Below, piece by piece: positions 8,794 through 17,262 of a stretch of 64,000 nucleotides of DNA (positions within the stretch are counted from its first letter, which is position 1; each line of letters begins with the position of its first letter). Position numbers and translations under genes: made by a program. Under the pieces are notes generated by a model, which saw nothing but the letters and a program-made list of their open reading frames with translations, had not been told where the DNA came from and made no database searches. Origin of the DNA: Enterobacteria phage vB_EcoM_IME540; sequence record MT150133.1; one strand, written 5' to 3'.

Positions 8794-9093
8794 TTAGAAA
8801 GAACCAGAACCTCTAATTGTGTTCTGGCGACCTTTATTTTCTAATTCGGAGTGGTCGATTTCATATGCTTGTGCTACGCCAAAGGCCTTTTTAACTTTAG
8901 CTAAAGAACCTTTAGATGTAACAATATTAAAAGTATTACCTTTGGTAAAATCAACAAAATCGACTTGTACGCCCTGTTTACCGAGGCTTGCTACAATAGC
9001 ATCAACATATTCTTGGTCTAAATTGCCTTGAACTCCAATTTGAAATGCTTTAGGAGCTTTGGCTTCTGTGATAAATTCTTGATAAGTTTTCAT
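8794..9093 (-). CDS. internal-protein-like (capsid-targeted) protein, ipII position
   Basis: N-terminus MKTYQEFITEAK matches the T4 IP capsid-targeting sequence MKTYQEFIAE; adjacent to denV as ipII is in T4. Confidence 0.6.
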   Translation of the reverse strand: MKTYQEFITEAKAPKAFQIGVQGNLDQEYVDAIVASLGKQGVQVDFVDFTKGNTFNIVTSKGSLAKVKKAFGVAQAYEIDHSELENKGRQNTIRGSGSF

Positions 9094-9610: not shown

Positions 9611-10009
9611 TTATTTATAGGTTTTCATCCAATTCTTGAACAAAGCTGCGACGTCTTTCTCTTTAACGTTCAGTTTAACGTCCAACATTTTACCACCGGC
9701 AGCACGTGTCTGACGAATCTTAGCAGTACCGGTTTCGCCATTCCACTCAACATAATACTGTCCGGTGTTCATTGCAATACCGTCGCCGTAGTCTTCATTT
9801 TTAGAAGTGGTGAATGCCAGCTTCATAGTCTTAGATACACGAGCCTGCATGCCTGTCTGAAGGGCATTACGAACGCGAATAACCTGAGGAGTGGCCTGGG
9901 TCAGGTTTTCATTCAGTTCTTCAGTGAACTCTTCAGATTCAAACATCGCCAAAAGTTCTTTAGATGCAGGAATTACATTCTCTGCGATAAATTCATTATA
10001 AGTTTTCAT
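9611..10009 (-). CDS. internal-protein-like (capsid-targeted) protein, ipIII position
   Basis: N-terminus [11 protein letters not shown] (capsid-targeting-like); between denV and e. Confidence 0.6.
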
Positions 10010-10970: not shown

Positions 10971-11199
10971 CGTCTCGTTCCCATGATTGTTTAAAAATAT
11001 CTTGCATAATAATTTGAAGTCTATTTTCTGTTGATGGACTTTCACTATCAGACACTTGAAGCATATAGTCACCAATAGGACAGAACATATCCAAGTCGCT
11101 TTCTAAATCTTCTTTGATTTTCTCTTCTGACGTTCCGGTATCATAGGAATACAGATAAGAATCACATGACTCGGATTTAATATAAATCGCAATACTCAT
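10963..11199 (-). CDS. hypothetical small acidic protein
   Basis: ORF track. Confidence 0.35.
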   Translation of the reverse strand: MSIAIYIKSESCDSYLYSYDTGTSEEKIKEDLESDLDMFCPIGDYMLQVSDSESPSTENRLQIIMQDIFKQSWERDDE

Positions 11200-11789
11200 T
11201 TACGGCATTCCTCAATAAACTCATTTAAATTCCGTTTGATTTTACCTTCGTCGTAAAGACGTTGTTGACGACGTAAACGCCATGGCATTTCAATAGCCAA
11301 GCACCAAATACTTAAAGCAGCGCCAGCTGTGAAAAGGTTCATTAATCCAGCACCAATAATAGTTCGTTCTAGCGCATCATTCCAGTTAGCATCGATTAAA
11401 AATGAACTCAACACTAACATTGGAAGTAAAGTAATAAAATATGCTACAACATATCGTCTGAACGTAAGCCATTCAGTATCGATGAGCTTAGCCTTTCCAT
11501 CTTGGAGACAAATATACTTATCGTCAGTGCGGGTGATTTTCTTTACTGGTTGCCAGCCGTTTACGATATAGCCCATTTTATATTCCTCAATTAAAAGCTG
11601 TTTCATTTCGGCAGTACAACCTGACCAATCTATTGTACTGGCTGAAATTCCTTCATCACCGTCATCGATATTTCGCCAGGACTTTTTAATAATCATATGT
11701 TCACCACTTGGGATAATAATTCCAGCATTTTCCGACCGACGGATGAAGTTTGTATCAATACCCATACAACCGGGTTCATAAAGGGCCAT
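11196..11789 (-). CDS. hypothetical membrane protein with C-terminal NEFIEECRK motif
   Basis: 197 aa; two hydrophobic segments near C-terminus, then basic tail. Confidence 0.5.
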   Translation of the reverse strand: MALYEPGCMGIDTNFIRRSENAGIIIPSGEHMIIKKSWRNIDDGDEGISASTIDWSGCTAEMKQLLIEEYKMGYIVNGWQPVKKITRTDDKYICLQDGKAKLIDTEWLTFRRYVVAYFITLLPMLVLSSFLIDANWNDALERTIIGAGLMNLFTAGAALSIWCLAIEMPWRLRRQQRLYDEGKIKRNLNEFIEECRK

Positions 11790-12478
11790 TACCAGCCCTC
11801 CATAGGGAATTCCAGATATACTTGAGCATTAACGCGGATTTCATTAGTAATCTTTTTAACTCGGTCGGTATTACGAGACACACGACCAAACCAGCGCCAA
11901 CCGTTACTTACTGCACGAGAACCTGTATGCCATGTCTGCCAATCAAACTGGAGCAACGTGCGGTCGGGGGCATCCCACTTGGTTAATTCATTAGACTCAA
12001 TTTTTTCCAGAACTTCTTTATGCCACTGGCGATAGATAAGTTCGCCTTCAGGAATCTGACTGAATTGTGCAGTTCCGGTTGCAAAATGAGTAGGACACAC
12101 ATCAGCGTTAACAAGACCAAGAATATGTTCAGAATGGTATCGAGGATTATCATAATCAGGTTGCCCTGCGGTAATAAAGTGTTGACCCACCGGAATATCC
12201 GGGCGTGGTACATCATCATGGTGGAAGCCTGGAATTGCAGGGTACCAGCCAGGCATTAACATGTGTACACGGGAATCAAATACAATATCAGGGCCACATT
12301 GCCAATCTTCAGGCAGGTTTTCAATAAAGCTACGAGTAATAGGACCGCCATGTTTATGAGCAAAATAAGCATCGCAATTAAAGAACATAGGCTCATTTTT
12401 AATCATATCATTACTGATATCTTGAGCAAAACCACCTACTGCACGAGCTTTAGAATTAAAAATTTTTGGACCGTTCAT
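11789..12478 (-). CDS. hypothetical protein (229 aa)
   Basis: ORF track; long ORF on gene strand. Confidence 0.5.
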   Translation of the reverse strand: MNGPKIFNSKARAVGGFAQDISNDMIKNEPMFFNCDAYFAHKHGGPITRSFIENLPEDWQCGPDIVFDSRVHMLMPGWYPAIPGFHHDDVPRPDIPVGQHFITAGQPDYDNPRYHSEHILGLVNADVCPTHFATGTAQFSQIPEGELIYRQWHKEVLEKIESNELTKWDAPDRTLLQFDWQTWHTGSRAVSNGWRWFGRVSRNTDRVKKITNEIRVNAQVYLEFPMEGW

Positions 12479-12492
12479 AATATTTTCCTCAC

Positions 12493-12705
12493 TTACTTTT
12501 TGTTGAAAAAGTACATTTTACCTTTAGGGGATAAGGATACACGAAGTGCGTTACCAATACCAACTGAACATTTAACCAGGTCAGCAGATTTCAATTCACC
12601 AAATGCTTGACGAAGGTCACCGTCACGAGTGTTAACCATCAGGCATTTAGCACCAGCTGCACGAACTTCGTTTAACATGTTGATTGCTTGGTTAGAAAGT
12701 TTCAT
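12493..12705 (-). CDS. hypothetical small protein (start at ATG 12705)
   Basis: Track ORF begins with TTG at 12783 inside the promoter cassette; ATG at 12703-12705 is preceded by GGAG and the leader AGTGAAATGGAGAATAAAATG. Confidence 0.45.
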   Translation of the reverse strand: MKLSNQAINMLNEVRAAGAKCLMVNTRDGDLRQAFGELKSADLVKCSVGIGNALRVSLSPKGKMYFFNKK

Positions 12706-12731
12706 TTTATTCTCCATTTCACTCTGTTGTT

Positions 12732-12771
12732 TTGATAGGTCTATAGTATCACACCTATAGACCTTGTACAC
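12732..12771 (-). promoter_or_regulatory. early promoter cassette (PeSL-like) copy 4
   Basis: Same core with GTGTACA -35 variant; inverted repeat AGGTCTATAG / CTATAGACCT. Confidence 0.55.
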
Positions 12772-12783
12772 TGTTTTGTGCAA

Positions 12784-13743
12784 TTATTTTTCGAAAGGAC
12801 GAATTAAATGTTGGTTACGCTTAAACCGTTCAATGTAGTCGTTTTCACCTAAAGTCTTGTACATATTAACCACAGCTTGGTAGTTTTCCCATGCATAAGT
12901 GCGGAACCAACCTGAAGTGATTGAGGTGCACACTTTCTCAAGGGCCATATAGAAACTTAATGATGGTGAAATATTGAAGTCATTAGGAACCTGTGAACGT
13001 TCTAGTGCCAGGACACAAGTTTCTTCATACACACCAGCCAGTTTAATAGCTTCAGGCAAAGCCTCGAACTTCTCACGAGAGGTCATGACTTCAGAACCTT
13101 CCTTCATATAAAAGGTATATGCAGGGCGCCCTGCCAATGCCACTGCTTCATGGATAGAGTCGTGGTCCAGAGTATAAATGGGATCATTAAAGAACGATGA
13201 TTTGTTTACATCCAATTTAGGGTGGGAATAGCTCAACGTTTCTTTTTGACGTTGCAACATAATTTCCTGGAGTTCTTCGTTAAGGGTGATACCTTTATTA
13301 CGAAGGTATTTGATGTGGGACATGGTTTTCAAGAAGAACGGATTATTCTTCAAGAAACGATGGGAGGTTTTGATAGCCAGACAGATATCAGGGGTTGCCC
13401 AATAGAAACCTGTAAGACGGTCCTTTTTAATATGATTTTCGGCATATTTCAGGAGACGATAACTTGAGGTGAAATCTTCGTCTTGAAGCTCACCGGTAAT
13501 TTCTCGTACGTTAGTCAGGGCACGAACGATATAAGCTTCAAAATAGGTTTCTTTACCATTGTACATGCATTTAAAAGCCTGGACATCAGGGTTATCCACA
13601 GGAACATGGGCACCAAACATCCGAGCTTTAAAGTGATTCCATGAGCCTTGGTCGGCAATGAAATCCCAATCAGAATTTTCGATATGCTTACTTTCAATCA
13701 GACCAGCGTGGTGCAGTGCACGAGAACCAATAACTAACATCAT
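12784..13743 (-). CDS. hypothetical protein (319 aa) with nucleotidyltransferase-like GS...DxD signature
   Basis: Start set at MM (13743/13740) with GAGGA SD; N-terminal LVIGSRALHHAG...SDWDF resembles pol-beta-type NTase motif; weak. Confidence 0.45.
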   Translation of the reverse strand: MMLVIGSRALHHAGLIESKHIENSDWDFIADQGSWNHFKARMFGAHVPVDNPDVQAFKCMYNGKETYFEAYIVRALTNVREITGELQDEDFTSSYRLLKYAENHIKKDRLTGFYWATPDICLAIKTSHRFLKNNPFFLKTMSHIKYLRNKGITLNEELQEIMLQRQKETLSYSHPKLDVNKSSFFNDPIYTLDHDSIHEAVALAGRPAYTFYMKEGSEVMTSREKFEALPEAIKLAGVYEETCVLALERSQVPNDFNISPSLSFYMALEKVCTSITSGWFRTYAWENYQAVVNMYKTLGENDYIERFKRNQHLIRPFEK

Positions 13744-13762
13744 AATATTTTCCTCAGTAAAC

Positions 13763-14002
13763 TTAAATTTCAGCGACGTAATCGTTATGCAATTCCCACA
13801 TATCATCAGAATTATTCTTAATGATAGGAATTATCTCATTAGAGATTTCTTCAGCATAAGGGTCATTGATACAGTGGGCATCTTCAAAACGAACACCGTA
13901 ATCAGACTTCTTATAAGAGAAGCCATAAATCTTTTTAAACTTGGCGCGAGTAATGCGTACCGGTTCATTAGACTTATCGGACATCGGAGCGTAATACCAC
14001 AT
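13763..14002 (-). CDS. hypothetical small protein (79 aa)
   Basis: ORF track. Confidence 0.4.
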   Translation of the reverse strand: MWYYAPMSDKSNEPVRITRAKFKKIYGFSYKKSDYGVRFEDAHCINDPYAEEISNEIIPIIKNNSDDMWELHNDYVAEI

Positions 14003-14045
14003 ATGTTCTCCTCATGTTTGTGTAGGGTAATAGTAACATGATTTT

Positions 14046-14396
14046 CTAGAGTTGTACATCACTTCTGCAATATTCTAAAAATAATTTATCATTGTCTACT
14101 GTATCCCAACGACGCCAAGACGGGTTCCAGACCAAAGCGTTGTCACCACAATCATTGAGCTTAAAATGGTCGTAGTACATAGCTATGTGTCTAGTCTCGT
14201 CACCAGAGAACCCCAGTATAGGCTCACCGTGGGTGTGATACATATGATGGTGCATTGAGAGGTCGCATTTGTAAAACATCTCACGTTTACCACGAACGAA
14301 CAAGAAGGCCTGTCCATTCATATAGAATTCTTTATTTGTTTTCAAAAGATATTTGAATACTGAATCTTTATGCATAAGTCCTCCTACCACATCCAT
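14046..14396 (-). CDS. hypothetical protein (116 aa), His/Cys-rich
   Basis: ORF track. Confidence 0.45.
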   Translation of the reverse strand: MDVVGGLMHKDSVFKYLLKTNKEFYMNGQAFLFVRGKREMFYKCDLSMHHHMYHTHGEPILGFSGDETRHIAMYYDHFKLNDCGDNALVWNPSWRRWDTVDNDKLFLEYCRSDVQL

Positions 14397-14405
14397 GTGG
14401 TTAAA

Positions 14406-14633
14406 TTATTTTCCTAACGAAATACGAGTAGGTTTTTTACCGAAATAGTCTTCATAAGAACCATCTAAACGACCTGCTTTAGACCGACAATATGAATCGT
14501 ACTTTTTGTAATAAGTCATCTCAGTATTATAACGCGGGTGTCTATCAGCCATAATAATACTTAACGGCCAACCTTTGGCATAATCGCGAAGACCATTTAT
14601 TTTACGAATGTATCTTTTCTTTAATTTTAGCAT
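14406..14633 (-). CDS. hypothetical small basic protein (75 aa)
   Basis: ORF track. Confidence 0.4.
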   Translation of the reverse strand: MLKLKKRYIRKINGLRDYAKGWPLSIIMADRHPRYNTEMTYYKKYDSYCRSKAGRLDGSYEDYFGKKPTRISLGK

Positions 14634-14851
14634 GAGCTCGGATACCAGATTTTACCATCGGCCTGAGCAACGAAGGTGCGTCCAGCTTCTTCACCATAAC
14701 AAGAGCTATTCAGCCAATCTTCGAGACGAACTTCACCGTCATAATCGTCGAGCTCAACACCAAAACTTTGAGCAGAAGCCATATCTTTTACTTTCTTATA
14801 CAGTGCAGCCAGTTCAAGTGCGGCTTTTTCTAATTCATTAATATCAGTCAT
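14627..14851 (-). CDS. small acidic protein, member D of C-terminal-Cys paralog family
   Basis: Start at ATG 14849-14851 (MTDINELEK...), ends ...GKIWYPSSC; junction TAAGG-N-ATG to upstream paralog. Confidence 0.5.
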   Translation of the reverse strand: MTDINELEKAALELAALYKKVKDMASAQSFGVELDDYDGEVRLEDWLNSSCYGEEAGRTFVAQADGKIWYPSSC

Positions 14852-14861
14852 TTTTATCACC

Positions 14862-15074
14862 TTAGCAAGACATAGAGGATGTAAACCAGAAACCTTCACC
14901 ATCTGGGATACCGTAATCATCACGGGCCCATTCATAATCATCATATTCCGGATTCTTTGGAGAAATGTATTGTCCACGACCAGAAACATGGAACTCTTCA
15001 CCCGTTTCGTCAGCCACGGCCTGGCCTTTACGTACTAATTCGCGGATTTGTTTTTCAATTTCATCAATAGTCAT
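14862..15074 (-). CDS. small acidic protein, member C of C-terminal-Cys paralog family
   Basis: MTIDEIEKQ... ends ...GFWFTSSMSC. Confidence 0.55.
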   Translation of the reverse strand: MTIDEIEKQIRELVRKGQAVADETGEEFHVSGRGQYISPKNPEYDDYEWARDDYGIPDGEGFWFTSSMSC

Positions 15075-15083
15075 TTTATTTCC

Positions 15084-15365
15084 TTAACATTCAGAAGAAG
15101 AGGACACCCAACCGCCATTTTCTAGGCTGGTGGTGTAATCATGCTGGTTTACAATAGCATACTGGGCTTCACCGTATTCTTCCCAGTGGGCAAGGTCGGC
15201 TTTCAAGGCGCCAGGAGAATAATAGTCACCGCCCATACCGCGAGCAGGGTATATATTAAAATGAGTCTCATATTTGTTAGCAATTTCCTCGGCACGACGA
15301 ATAGCTTTATGGATATCATTTACTGCGTCAGCCAGCTCTTTATTTTTACGGTAATCATTCATCAT
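15084..15365 (-). CDS. small acidic protein, member B of C-terminal-Cys paralog family
   Basis: ends ...ENGGWVSSSSEC; Gly/Tyr-rich middle. Confidence 0.55.
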   Translation of the reverse strand: MMNDYRKNKELADAVNDIHKAIRRAEEIANKYETHFNIYPARGMGGDYYSPGALKADLAHWEEYGEAQYAIVNQHDYTTSLENGGWVSSSSEC

Positions 15366-15374
15366 AGCGTTTCC

Positions 15375-15665
15375 TTAGCACATTGCCGAAGAGGAGACCC
15401 AAGCACCAACTGTAACGACACCGTTTTCAACTTCACCGCCATTGTTTTCAATTTCATCTTTAAACCATTGGGAGCATTCATAACCGACAGGATAATATGT
15501 ACGGCCTGAACCATAACCACCGGTACTGAATTCAATACCATATTCATCTGCGATTTCTTCACATTTGGATTCGATGGTGCCTACTTTACCCAGCAGGTCA
15601 TAGATAGCCTTTTCTGCGGACAGCGCGCTGTTGTATTCAGGGATTTCAATTTCAATTTTATTCAT
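15375..15665 (-). CDS. small acidic protein, member A of C-terminal-Cys paralog family
   Basis: ends ...VGAWVSSSAMC; Gly/Tyr-rich middle GGYGSGRTYYPVGYE. Confidence 0.55.
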   Translation of the reverse strand: MNKIEIEIPEYNSALSAEKAIYDLLGKVGTIESKCEEIADEYGIEFSTGGYGSGRTYYPVGYECSQWFKDEIENNGGEVENGVVTVGAWVSSSAMC

Positions 15666-16015
15666 GATTTACATTCCTTAATAAAGGTTTCAAGGTCATT
15701 ACGTTTAGTTTGTTTTACATACTCATTATAATTAACCATAGCTAAAGCATATCTCTTTTTACGCGGCTTGTTTATTTTATTAGTTTGGGCAATATCAAAG
15801 ACCCATGGGATAAAAAATCCTATTAAAGCCGGAACCCAAATCCATGCAAGGCTCATATCTTCAAACGGATGGCGAGGCATACCATTAATAATCCCACCGA
15901 CAAGAAATCCAATTATCCCTGCAGTCATACTAGTAGCAATGCCGAGGAATAAGGAAATAGCTATATCATAATCTGCTAATGCGTAACCAGGGTCGGTTTT
16001 ACTAGGCTTATGCAT
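15662..16015 (-). CDS. hypothetical 3-TM membrane protein with C-terminal LETFIKECKS motif
   Basis: Start at ATG 16013-16015 (MHKPSK...); three hydrophobic segments; stop overlaps start of downstream paralog A. Confidence 0.5.
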   Translation of the reverse strand: MHKPSKTDPGYALADYDIAISLFLGIATSMTAGIIGFLVGGIINGMPRHPFEDMSLAWIWVPALIGFFIPWVFDIAQTNKINKPRKKRYALAMVNYNEYVKQTKRNDLETFIKECKS

Positions 16016-16544
16016 TTTGAACCTCTTTAGCGTATTCGCGACATTCAGTAATAAAACGATTAAGTTTACGTTGTTGTTTACGAATCTCTGATGTATACTC
16101 ATTGGCTAAAATAATAAGCTCATCTTTATCGTAATTTTTAATATCCGAATAACTCGGGCGGCGGTCGACCATACCAAAGTGGTCACCATTTTCTAACATC
16201 AAATAGCATACTAAATGGTAATCATCGTCGGCATCAACAAGCTGTTTATAATCGCTTGGTTCATTTAAAGAGTATACTGAATAGCGTAGCCCAGCGAATT
16301 CCACTCGTTGAATAGCCAGATTTACGTCAATAATTTCTAAAGCATCTGCAAAAGAAAGGTCCTCAGCTAAAGCAAAGATAAAGGGTAATTTGGTAGTATG
16401 CCCACGGCTAGATGTTCTGCTTAAGAAATCGTTTGAATAACCTAGGTCTTGGCGAATTCTATAAAGAACTGCATTAGTTTCATGTGAAAGACCACTATGT
16501 TTAAACCAATCAATATTTGATATCAGGTCGTCGTATAAACTCAT
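16008..16544 (-). CDS. hypothetical protein (178 aa) with C-terminal NRFITECREY motif
   Basis: ORF track. Confidence 0.5.
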   Translation of the reverse strand: MSLYDDLISNIDWFKHSGLSHETNAVLYRIRQDLGYSNDFLSRTSSRGHTTKLPFIFALAEDLSFADALEIIDVNLAIQRVEFAGLRYSVYSLNEPSDYKQLVDADDDYHLVCYLMLENGDHFGMVDRRPSYSDIKNYDKDELIILANEYTSEIRKQQRKLNRFITECREYAKEVQNA

Positions 16545-16592: not shown

Positions 16593-17186
16593 TTACTTAA
16601 GTGAATTAATGTAGTCTTCGATATCAGCAGAAGTCGTATCCATTCCAACTTGCGGGCCTTTAAACGTTTCTACGCGCATCAGGGTGTCTTCGATATCAAT
16701 CTTGGTCAGTGCAGCAATTTCAACAACATCGTCGGCAGTAGCAATACCAAGGGCAGCCATATTACGAGTTTCACGGATGTACTCGAGCTTAACAGCCAGT
16801 TCCTGACGAGAGTCATCAAGTTCCTTAACCTTCAGTTTAATTTCATTACGCATTTCGATATAATCATCGGCTTTCTTACGAAGCTGAGTAGCTGTACGAC
16901 GATAAAGGAGACCGAGTTTAGCATGTACCTGGACATCAGAGCCTTCGGCAATCAGTTTACGAATTTCACGTTCTTTAGAAGCAGCGAGCTGGTCTTTTTC
17001 ATTAGCCAAAGCACGAATACGTTTTTCTTCATTCACAGACTTAACATGAGCAGTCTGGAGTTCAGTGATTTTATCAATCAGAGTAGAAGCAGCTTTGGTG
17101 TATTGGTCTTCGATTGACAGGTTCTGAGCCATTGCGGTGCCCAGTTTAGAACGAATGAATTCAACGATTTTCTTTAAAGTGTTCAT
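16593..17186 (-). CDS. coiled-coil protein, possibly PspA/IM30-like
   Basis: Start at ATG 17184-17186 with GAAGGA SD; predicted long helical/coiled-coil protein with N-terminal amphipathic FxxIVxxI pattern; assignment tentative. Confidence 0.35.
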
Positions 17187-17262
17187 AGTATTTCCTTCAG
17201 TTGGTTGATATTTTGTAATCCATGAGGACATTATACCCTGTCCTCTGAGGTTTGTAAACATT

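Follow-up and report, generated by a model that had tools for sequence, protein, structure and literature searches.

A short C-terminal tail shared by proteins of the e.6 to e.2 gene cluster of T4-like phages, downstream of a divergent PspA/Vipp1 homolog

We describe a short C-terminal motif carried by several otherwise unrelated proteins of T4-like phages. The starting point was a stretch of 64,000 nucleotides of Enterobacteria phage vB_EcoM_IME540 (MT150133.1), hereafter the window, in which the motif lies in a minus-strand cluster of "hypothetical" genes placed between e.8 and the lysozyme gene e. The Escherichia phages MX01, QL01, and Bp7 (Dhakavirus, Tevenvirinae) match this region with 95-96% identity and, judging from its sequence, the source of the window is a Dhakavirus, a T4-like coliphage. 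In the genomes and contigs compared, the motif is confined to the putative operon of e.6, a phage homolog of PspA/Vipp1. The interpretation that we favor, with a probability of roughly 0.45, is that the tail is a shared cytoplasmic docking helix that would couple the proteins of the operon to an e.6 polymer.

The original prediction reported three proteins, encoded at 11196-11789, 15662-16015, and 16008-16544, that share a C-terminal N-x-FI-x-EC(R/K). The three C-termini read as it stated, except that N-x-FI is found in the first and third proteins and the second has E-T-FI; the core common to them is F-I-x-E-C-[RK]. It was also right in describing two of the three as membrane proteins, since 11196-11789 and 15662-16015 have two predicted transmembrane (TM) segments each and the third has none, and in noting that the third gene overlaps the start of the second, here by 8 nt. 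It missed a fourth tail-bearing protein (14046-14396), as well as the identity of the upstream gene e.6. Across the whole 64 kb, translated in six frames, the pattern F[IVL].EC[RK] has exactly three matches, namely the three tails. Relaxing the pattern slightly adds the fourth, which is also a real gene, and a hidden Markov model (HMM) of the tail ranks the four tail-bearing open reading frames (ORFs) first to fourth among 380. When the 89 proteins of the window were shuffled 5000 times, at least two C-terminal matches were obtained in 4 shuffles and at least three in none, which argues against chance; four are observed. The motif is non-random.

The tail is not restricted to the window. We collected 34 tails from ten genomes of nine T4-like genera and aligned them on the Phe (position 0). 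They follow the pattern phi(-3)-[E/D/N](-2)-x-F(0)-[I/V](+1)-x-x-C(+4)-[R/K](+5). Phe fills position 0 in 32 tails and Trp in the other 2; there are 24 I, 9 V, and a single L at +1; +4 is C in 27 tails and otherwise I, V, M, or S; and +5 is R in 29 and K in the remaining 5. Upstream, L, I, M, V, and F predominate at -3, where they make up 27 of the 29 most frequent residues listed, and E, D, or N at -2. In a helix, positions -3, 0, +1, and +4 share one face. Each genome has between one and five tails, always in the same gene cluster. In T4 they are carried by four consecutive genes, e.5, e.4, e.3, and e.2, with the Cys shifted in e.4. Five tail-bearing proteins are found in each of RB69, KPN6 (Jiaodavirus), and Merlin (Moonvirus), and four in each of IME523 (Kanagawavirus) and X20 (Winklervirus). 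Aeromonas phage AS-gz (Tulanevirus) and two Pseudotevenvirus phages have one each, encoded by the gene after e.6. The recurrence in related phages that the original prediction had called for is therefore present: the tail is invariant in all retrieved orthologs of the three families first noted, and it is also found in T4, RB69, and seven further genera.

In every family, very few alignment columns are invariant, and those of the tail residues are among them. The gene at 11196-11789 is annotated as e.2 in Bp7, and its product matches phrog_2203 ("membrane protein"). In 16 orthologs, with identity down to 39%, the tail residues F191, I192, E194, C195, R196, and K197 are invariant. A search for related loci with e.2 returned Dhakavirus loci only. 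In T4 strain "wild" (KJ477684; L003 20001-20488), e.2 is split over two frames with the tail-bearing C-terminal part in another frame; a frameshift or a sequencing error would account for this. The product of 15662-16015 matches T4 e.3 over its full length (BLASTP, 2e-10), and its last 12 residues are invariant in 13 orthologs with identity down to 50%. The TM parts of both membrane-protein families diverge to about 40-50% identity. The ORF of the e.3 homolog can be extended upstream (15662-16102, minus strand, 146 aa), where it would overlap the e.5 ortholog by 95 nt. The 117-aa form is the likely product because all orthologs begin at the MHKPS/MYKPS Met (16015).

The two soluble carriers show the same conservation. 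The 178-aa family of 16008-16544 aligns with the family found at the e.5 position in nine genera (hhalign probability 96%, E 2e-9, 101 columns), and we regard this protein as a divergent e.5 ortholog. Its residues R163, F164, I165, E167, C168, R169, E170, Y171, A172, and K173 are invariant among the retrieved orthologs, and in the alignment of the e.5 family across the nine genera (14-21% identity) the F and C of the tail are the only invariant columns. The AlphaFold2 (AF2) model of this protein, built from a 15-sequence alignment, has a mean confidence (pLDDT) of 39 and is unusable beyond a hint of a helix at residues 140-177. Weak homologs of the 116-aa protein in Kanagawavirus IME523 (BLASTP 1e-3) and Moonvirus Merlin (0.02) also bear the tail. 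No tail-bearing protein could be assigned to a functional family by searches of Pfam, NCBIfam, PHROGs, or PADLOC. Merlin also encodes an 82-aa protein (L018 14328-14576) with an internal ...ELVQTCRAYAKVW... that resembles the e.5-type tail FITECREYAKEV and is not C-terminal.

The tail thus defined spans about 10-35 residues, is usually preceded by a basic linker, and sits on unrelated protein bodies. The profiles of the e.2 and e.3 families match only in the last 38 columns, which are those of the tail, and the bodies of the e.5 ortholog and of the 116-aa protein differ from those of the other carriers. By these comparisons, the tail is a modular unit on otherwise unrelated proteins. The e.3 and e.4 families are full-length paralogs (hhalign probability 97%, E 1e-10), so some of the tails are shared by descent. 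One might hence view the tail as a functionless relic of gene duplication, or as a chance resemblance. This is the least probable of the explanations that we considered, and it is contradicted by the conservation data, since conservation is highest in the tail, whereas the bodies of these families are no longer recognizably similar.

Conservation acts on the protein and not on the DNA. The invariant residues are encoded by freely varying codons: Phe by TTT (23) and TTC (9), Cys by TGT (14) and TGC (13), and Arg by six different codons. Hence, the tail is selected at the protein level. This bears on the idea of a constraint on the nucleic acid, in which the tail would act either as a cassette for ribosome binding or translational coupling of the gene that follows, or as one for recombination that shuffles genes. 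The Shine-Dalgarno sequence of the next gene does fall within the tail codons of e.2 (GAG GAA TGC CGT AAATG) and of the e.3 homolog (AAG GAA TGT AAA TCATG), and T4 has TGC AGG AAA in both e.2 and e.3. Yet it falls on different motif codons depending on the gene and lies outside the motif in 16008-16544, and the distance between motif and stop codon ranges from 0 to 40 residues. Together with the fixed amino acids and variable synonymous codons, this makes such a constraint very improbable.

The tails are predicted to face the cytoplasm. Both the e.2 and the e.3 homolog combine two TM segments with short acidic loops and a C-terminal side that is basic. Two TM segments and the positive-inside charges place both ends of these proteins in the cytoplasm, a topology prediction that the original prediction had called for, and the e.5 ortholog and the 116-aa protein have no TM segment. 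The tail could then be a peripheral membrane-binding amphipathic helix, bringing soluble proteins to the membrane. Like the helices of MinD and FtsA, it is C-terminal and amphipathic, with a hydrophobic face and basic residues; its 11-residue hydrophobic moment is 0.5-0.9, and some carriers are soluble. Unlike them, it has a low mean hydrophobicity (-0.3 to -0.9), which argues against membrane insertion, conserved acidic residues at -2 and +3, and a strict residue identity, whereas membrane-binding helices tolerate sequence drift. Such a helix would also be superfluous on proteins that already span the membrane twice. We consider this explanation distinctly improbable.

The Cys raises the question of thiol chemistry, be it a disulfide or redox switch, a shared metal site, or acylation, with the basic flanks lowering the pKa of the thiol. 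The prevalence of Cys at +4, always followed by R or K, and its invariance in the e.5 family over nine genera would fit, as would the fact that an adjacent array of paralogs (see below) is likewise Cys-terminal. However, +4 is V, M, I, or S throughout the e.4 family and a family of 108/109-aa membrane proteins, and ten tails of a distant variant described below all have A or T there. The presence of other residues at +4 in some families indicates that the module works without the Cys, which appears to be dispensable, with V, M, I, A, or T replacing it in some families or lineages. The predicted cytoplasmic location further argues against structural disulfides. A role in thiol chemistry is therefore improbable.

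The original prediction proposed that the shared tail is a signal for interaction or processing. Interaction fits all our findings at the sequence level; processing fares poorly. A proteolytic or capsid-targeting signal of the form [I/V]-x-E plus a small residue, or EFIxE, is suggested by the tails of the window (EFIEE/C, TFIKE/C, RFITE/C, with the slash at the putative cut), which resemble the T4 prohead-protease site, the sole candidate for a cleavage site here, whose consensus is [I/L]-x-E. Moreover, an internal-protein-like gene encoded in the same region of the window begins with MKTYQEFITE. Against this, Glu at +3 is found in just 15 of the 34 tails, in none of those of Kanagawavirus, and in none of the distant variant; the residues conserved in the tail are F, I/V, C, and R/K rather than the Glu of a putative protease site. 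The tail motif is C-terminal where the capsid-targeting sequence is N-terminal, most carriers would lose no more than 2-3 residues to cleavage, and the carriers include inner-membrane proteins of an apparent early unit. Processing or capsid targeting is thus a highly improbable function, and we judge the EFIxE likeness between tails and internal-protein starts to be coincidental.

All tail genes of the window lie downstream of e.6 on the same strand, and the only promoter-like site is ahead of e.6 (Table 1). This site is the probable start of a transcription unit running from e.6 to e.2, and no terminator-like site was found on the minus strand between it and position 11000. The carrier genes appear to belong to one early operon.

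The first gene of this unit, e.6, is a conserved gene of T4-like phages whose annotation is hypothetical in every case. Sequence profiles, Pfam, and the predicted fold concur in showing that it is a divergent homolog of PspA/IM30/Vipp1. Profiles built from ten orthologs, and then from 29 relatives, place Vipp1/PspA chains first among the proteins of the Protein Data Bank (PDB). With the 29-relative profile, eight of the top nine are Vipp1/PspA, with a best E of 2e-4 and a match colinear over residues 1-140. Profiles are required, since the e.6 of the window used as a single sequence gives no match in the PDB. Similarly, Pfam PF04012 is matched individually by six of the 29 members of the e.6 family (best E 8.9e-10), and two distant members have a precomputed PF04012 hit, whereas the e.6 of the window does not match it at E<=1, so that membership rests on the family and not on this sequence. 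The AF2 model of e.6 (pLDDT 82) has helices at residues 2-22, 25-80, 86-145, 151-161, 166-173, and 186-196. This layout, an N-terminal amphipathic H0, a long H1/H2-3 hairpin, and short H4 and H5, is that of PspA/Vipp1. In a Foldseek search of the PDB with this model, the top nine matches are all Vipp1 (6zvs_A, rmsd 2.9 over 123 columns), and E. coli PspA (4whe) is matched with an rmsd of 4.3 over 117 columns. The family is small, with 35 clusters among 1.84 billion representatives. Literature searches by gene names and for phage-encoded PspA found no paper reporting the motif or the assignment of e.6, and the reviews of Psp and ESCRT-III systems that we checked do not mention phage homologs.

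The association between e.6 and the tails extends far beyond the window. In 17 of 18 genomes or contigs carrying e.6, the gene immediately after it bears the motif, including the Straboviridae genera Tulanevirus and Pseudotevenvirus, outside Tevenvirinae, and unplaced metagenomic contigs. The distant contexts examined have e.6 relatives at 23-28% identity. In contigs L022, L025, and L027, the gene after e.6 ends with ...SFIDECK..., ...SFIHQCK..., and ...AYIEKCK..., respectively, and in contig L021 two genes near e.6 have FVxxC. In L024, L026, L028, and L029, every gene after e.6 ends with a variant, I-[ILV]-x-x-[A/T]-[R/K], that keeps the register, is preceded by the same phi-[E/D]-x, and is followed by an Arg-rich end (L024 6661-8293; L026 1520-1926; L028 740-1372; L029 5650-6383). 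All ten of these distant-variant tails have A or T at +4, and most carriers of this I/A variant are single-pass membrane proteins with an N-terminal TM segment. In L024, only four of the 28 ORFs have the variant, and they are exactly the four that follow e.6. As a negative control, we scanned 98 kb of Acinetobacter phage 133, covering all early regions, and found neither an e.6 homolog nor tails. A last, possible link comes from e.6 itself. When the nine-column core of the tail is slid along the profile of the e.6 family, the best of the 191 registers is the extreme C-terminus of e.6, with a score of 6.7 for a mean of -8.0 (sd 4.1) and a next best register at 3.0.

We infer from these observations, and by analogy with the anchors PspB, PspC, and LiaI, that the tail may serve in docking and that e.6 may be its partner. 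The hydrophobic face formed by positions -3, 0, +1, and +4 would be the docking surface for a single common partner, and the likeliest candidate is e.6, whose gene heads the operon and which is presumably a polymer-forming membrane protein of the PspA/Vipp1 (ESCRT-III) type. Through their tails, e.2, e.3, e.4, and relatives, which span the inner membrane twice, would anchor or nucleate e.6 assemblies at the membrane, and the soluble e.5 and 116-aa proteins would be recruited by theirs to the same assemblies. In filaments of PspA/Vipp1, a subunit binds through its H5 to the hairpin of subunit j+3 and to that of a neighboring protofilament (PMC7619361). As the last helix of e.6 looks like a variant of the motif, this suggests that the tails may occupy the site on the hairpin used by H5 of a neighboring subunit, that is, bind by mimicking H5.

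Known systems offer partial precedents. Small membrane partners are typical of PspA operons (PMC11237479). In the Psp and Lia systems (PspA or LiaH with PspB, PspC, LiaI, PspM), a gene of the PspA family heads an operon with small integral membrane proteins, whose cytoplasmic parts would contact its product (PMC11237479). The e.2 and e.3 homologs, with two TM segments and a predicted cytoplasmic tail, are similarly encoded downstream of e.6. In contrast to these systems, that of e.6 is encoded by a phage and has no transcription factor in the unit, and several unrelated putative partners, some of them soluble, share one short C-terminal motif. We know of no Psp system with such a motif. The tails may also resemble the H5 and MIM helices of ESCRT-III proteins: each would be a short C-terminal amphipathic helix whose hydrophobic residues fall at i, i+3, i+4, and i+7 and whose end is basic, and the MIM1 consensus is (D/E)xxLxxRLxxL(K/R). 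The last helix of e.6, at the position of the H5 that contacts the hairpin in PspA/Vipp1, may follow the same pattern. Unlike in ESCRT-III, the helix is here on partner proteins and not on the ESCRT-III subunit, and no MIT-domain or Vps4-like protein is evident.

The same evidence for a conserved, modular, cytoplasmic, amphipathic helix would be expected if the tails docked onto something other than e.6. They could bundle together into a hetero-oligomeric membrane complex, or all bind one host protein. Most Tevenvirinae genomes have four or five tails, a number compatible with a helical bundle, and the uniformity of the variant within a genome fits mutual recognition equally well. However, a single tail-bearing protein is found at the AS-gz locus, at the two Pseudotevenvirus loci, and in several contigs, so that pairing between tails cannot be the ancestral role. 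Furthermore, e.6 is the one gene always found alongside the tails, and none of the searches suggested a host partner. We therefore see a partner other than e.6 as possible but rather unlikely.

Several observations weigh against docking onto e.6. The HMM of the tail does not match the C-terminus of e.6, which is only found by the softer profile-profile score. The last 60 residues of e.6, used as a profile against the PDB, show no detectable sequence homology to H4-H5 of Vipp1/PspA and return only spurious repeats in de novo TIM barrels; hence, the label H5 refers to position alone. Instead of co-evolution with a partner, the uniform I/A variant may record a lineage-specific duplication, as the L024 proteins look paralogous. 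The motif lies 25-40 residues before the end of the protein in Pseudotevenvirus and some contigs. Models of PspB, PspC, and LiaI (LiaI-LiaF-TM) do not match the tail-bearing membrane proteins, and no family of Pfam, NCBIfam, or PADLOC matches a tail-bearing protein of the window, T4, or RB69 at E<=0.1. Simple helix packing does not account for the near-invariant Cys of the e.2, e.3, and e.5 families. Finally, the adjacency of the genes could reflect shared regulation only.

Table 1. Coordinates of the features discussed, in positions of the window (minus sign: minus strand).
Feature	Position	Strand	Description
Promoter-like site	17230..17258	-	TTTACA-17-TATAAT, 11/12 consensus matches, just upstream of e.6; consensus scan only
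e.6	16593..17186	-	197 aa; first gene of the unit; divergent PspA/IM30/Vipp1 (ESCRT-III superfamily) homolog
e.6 C-terminal helix	16596-16622	-	...IEDYINSLK at the stop codon; tail-like heptad pattern
Divergent e.5 ortholog	16008..16544	-	178 aa, soluble; ends ...RKQQRKLNRFITECREYAKEVQNA (= ...RFITECREYAKEVQNA)
e.5-ortholog tail motif	16038-16055	-	C-terminal region of 16008-16544
T4 e.3 homolog	15662..16015	-	117 aa; TM hairpin, strongly basic linker, tail; ends ...QTKRNDLETFIKECKS
e.3-homolog TM hairpin	15788-15967	-	residues 17-76; TM prediction
e.3-homolog tail motif	15668-15685	-	end FIKECKS
Fourth tail-bearing protein	14046..14396	-	116 aa, no TM segment; ends ...DNDKLFLEYCRSDVQL (= ...KLFLEYCRSDVQL)
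116-aa protein tail motif	14064-14081	-	tail HMM 8.8 bits, fourth of 380 ORFs
340-aa protein	12784-13806	-	DUF7277 + DUF7275; conserved, always with the Cys-terminal array
229-aa protein	11789-12478	-	HHDDVPRP motif, end EFPMEGW; conserved, always with the array; no known family
e.2 homolog	11196..11789	-	197 aa; N-terminal cytoplasmic domain, TM hairpin, basic tail; ends ...KIKRNLNEFIEECRK
e.2 TM hairpin	11292-11456	-	residues 112-166; TM prediction
e.2 tail motif	11202-11219	-	end FIEECRK
Two internal-protein-like genes	8794-9093, 9611-10009	-	T4 capsid-targeting-type starts; 8794-9093 begins MKTYQEFITEA

Some neighboring features deserve mention. Between the e.3 homolog and the 116-aa protein, four small paralogs on the minus strand (15375-15665, 15084-15365, 14862-15074, and ~14627-14851) all end in W-x-(S/T)-S-S-..-C, with the Cys as last residue (GAWVSSSAMC, GGWVSSSSEC, GFWFTSSMSC, and KIWYPSSC). 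The Cys-terminal array is also present in RB69, IME523, X20, and Merlin and absent from T4. It is always in the insertion between e.3 and e.2, accompanied by the 340-aa and 229-aa proteins. One may speculate that the array and the two larger proteins are precursor peptides with their modifying enzymes. A distinct, N-terminal motif, M-x-[LFMW]-[YW]-[E/D]-x-G(C), is shared within the window by 11760-11789 and 16515-16544 (minus strand), as MALYEPGCMG in the long-form e.2 of Dhakavirus and MSLYDD in the e.5 ortholog. It is found in e.5-like proteins of other genera as MSFYEGCGP, MLYEC, MFYEG, MFYEI, MMWEPG, and MMFEDG (loci L014:2955, L015:9632, L016, L018:9648, L019, and L020). The two internal-protein-like genes start with what we take to be the capsid-targeting sequence of internal proteins, MKTYQEFI(A/T)E. 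This sequence and the prohead-protease site of internal proteins have in common with the tails a short EFIxE-like string, and the genes lie in the same genome region; by contrast, the tail is C-terminal, its Glu is not conserved, its Cys-Arg is, and its carriers include membrane proteins.

T4 is the best-studied phage, and its genes e.2 to e.6 have no assigned function. If docking onto e.6 is correct, these genes would make up a PspA/ESCRT-III system that the phage itself encodes, including membrane anchors and soluble clients linked by one motif. A broader proposal, which we regard as rather unlikely, is that T4-like phages carry in e.6 their own ESCRT-III/PspA machine for remodeling or repairing membranes, into whose polymer adaptors would plug by H5 mimicry, using a modular "tail code" early in infection. 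Such a code would let the phage attach varied membrane and soluble proteins to one scaffold. The motif would be a simple sequence tag with which to find further members, and the field of PspA, Vipp1, and ESCRT-III would gain a viral branch and a new mode of partner recruitment. For the phages themselves, e.2 to e.6 would acquire a testable role in keeping or reshaping the inner membrane of the host during infection.

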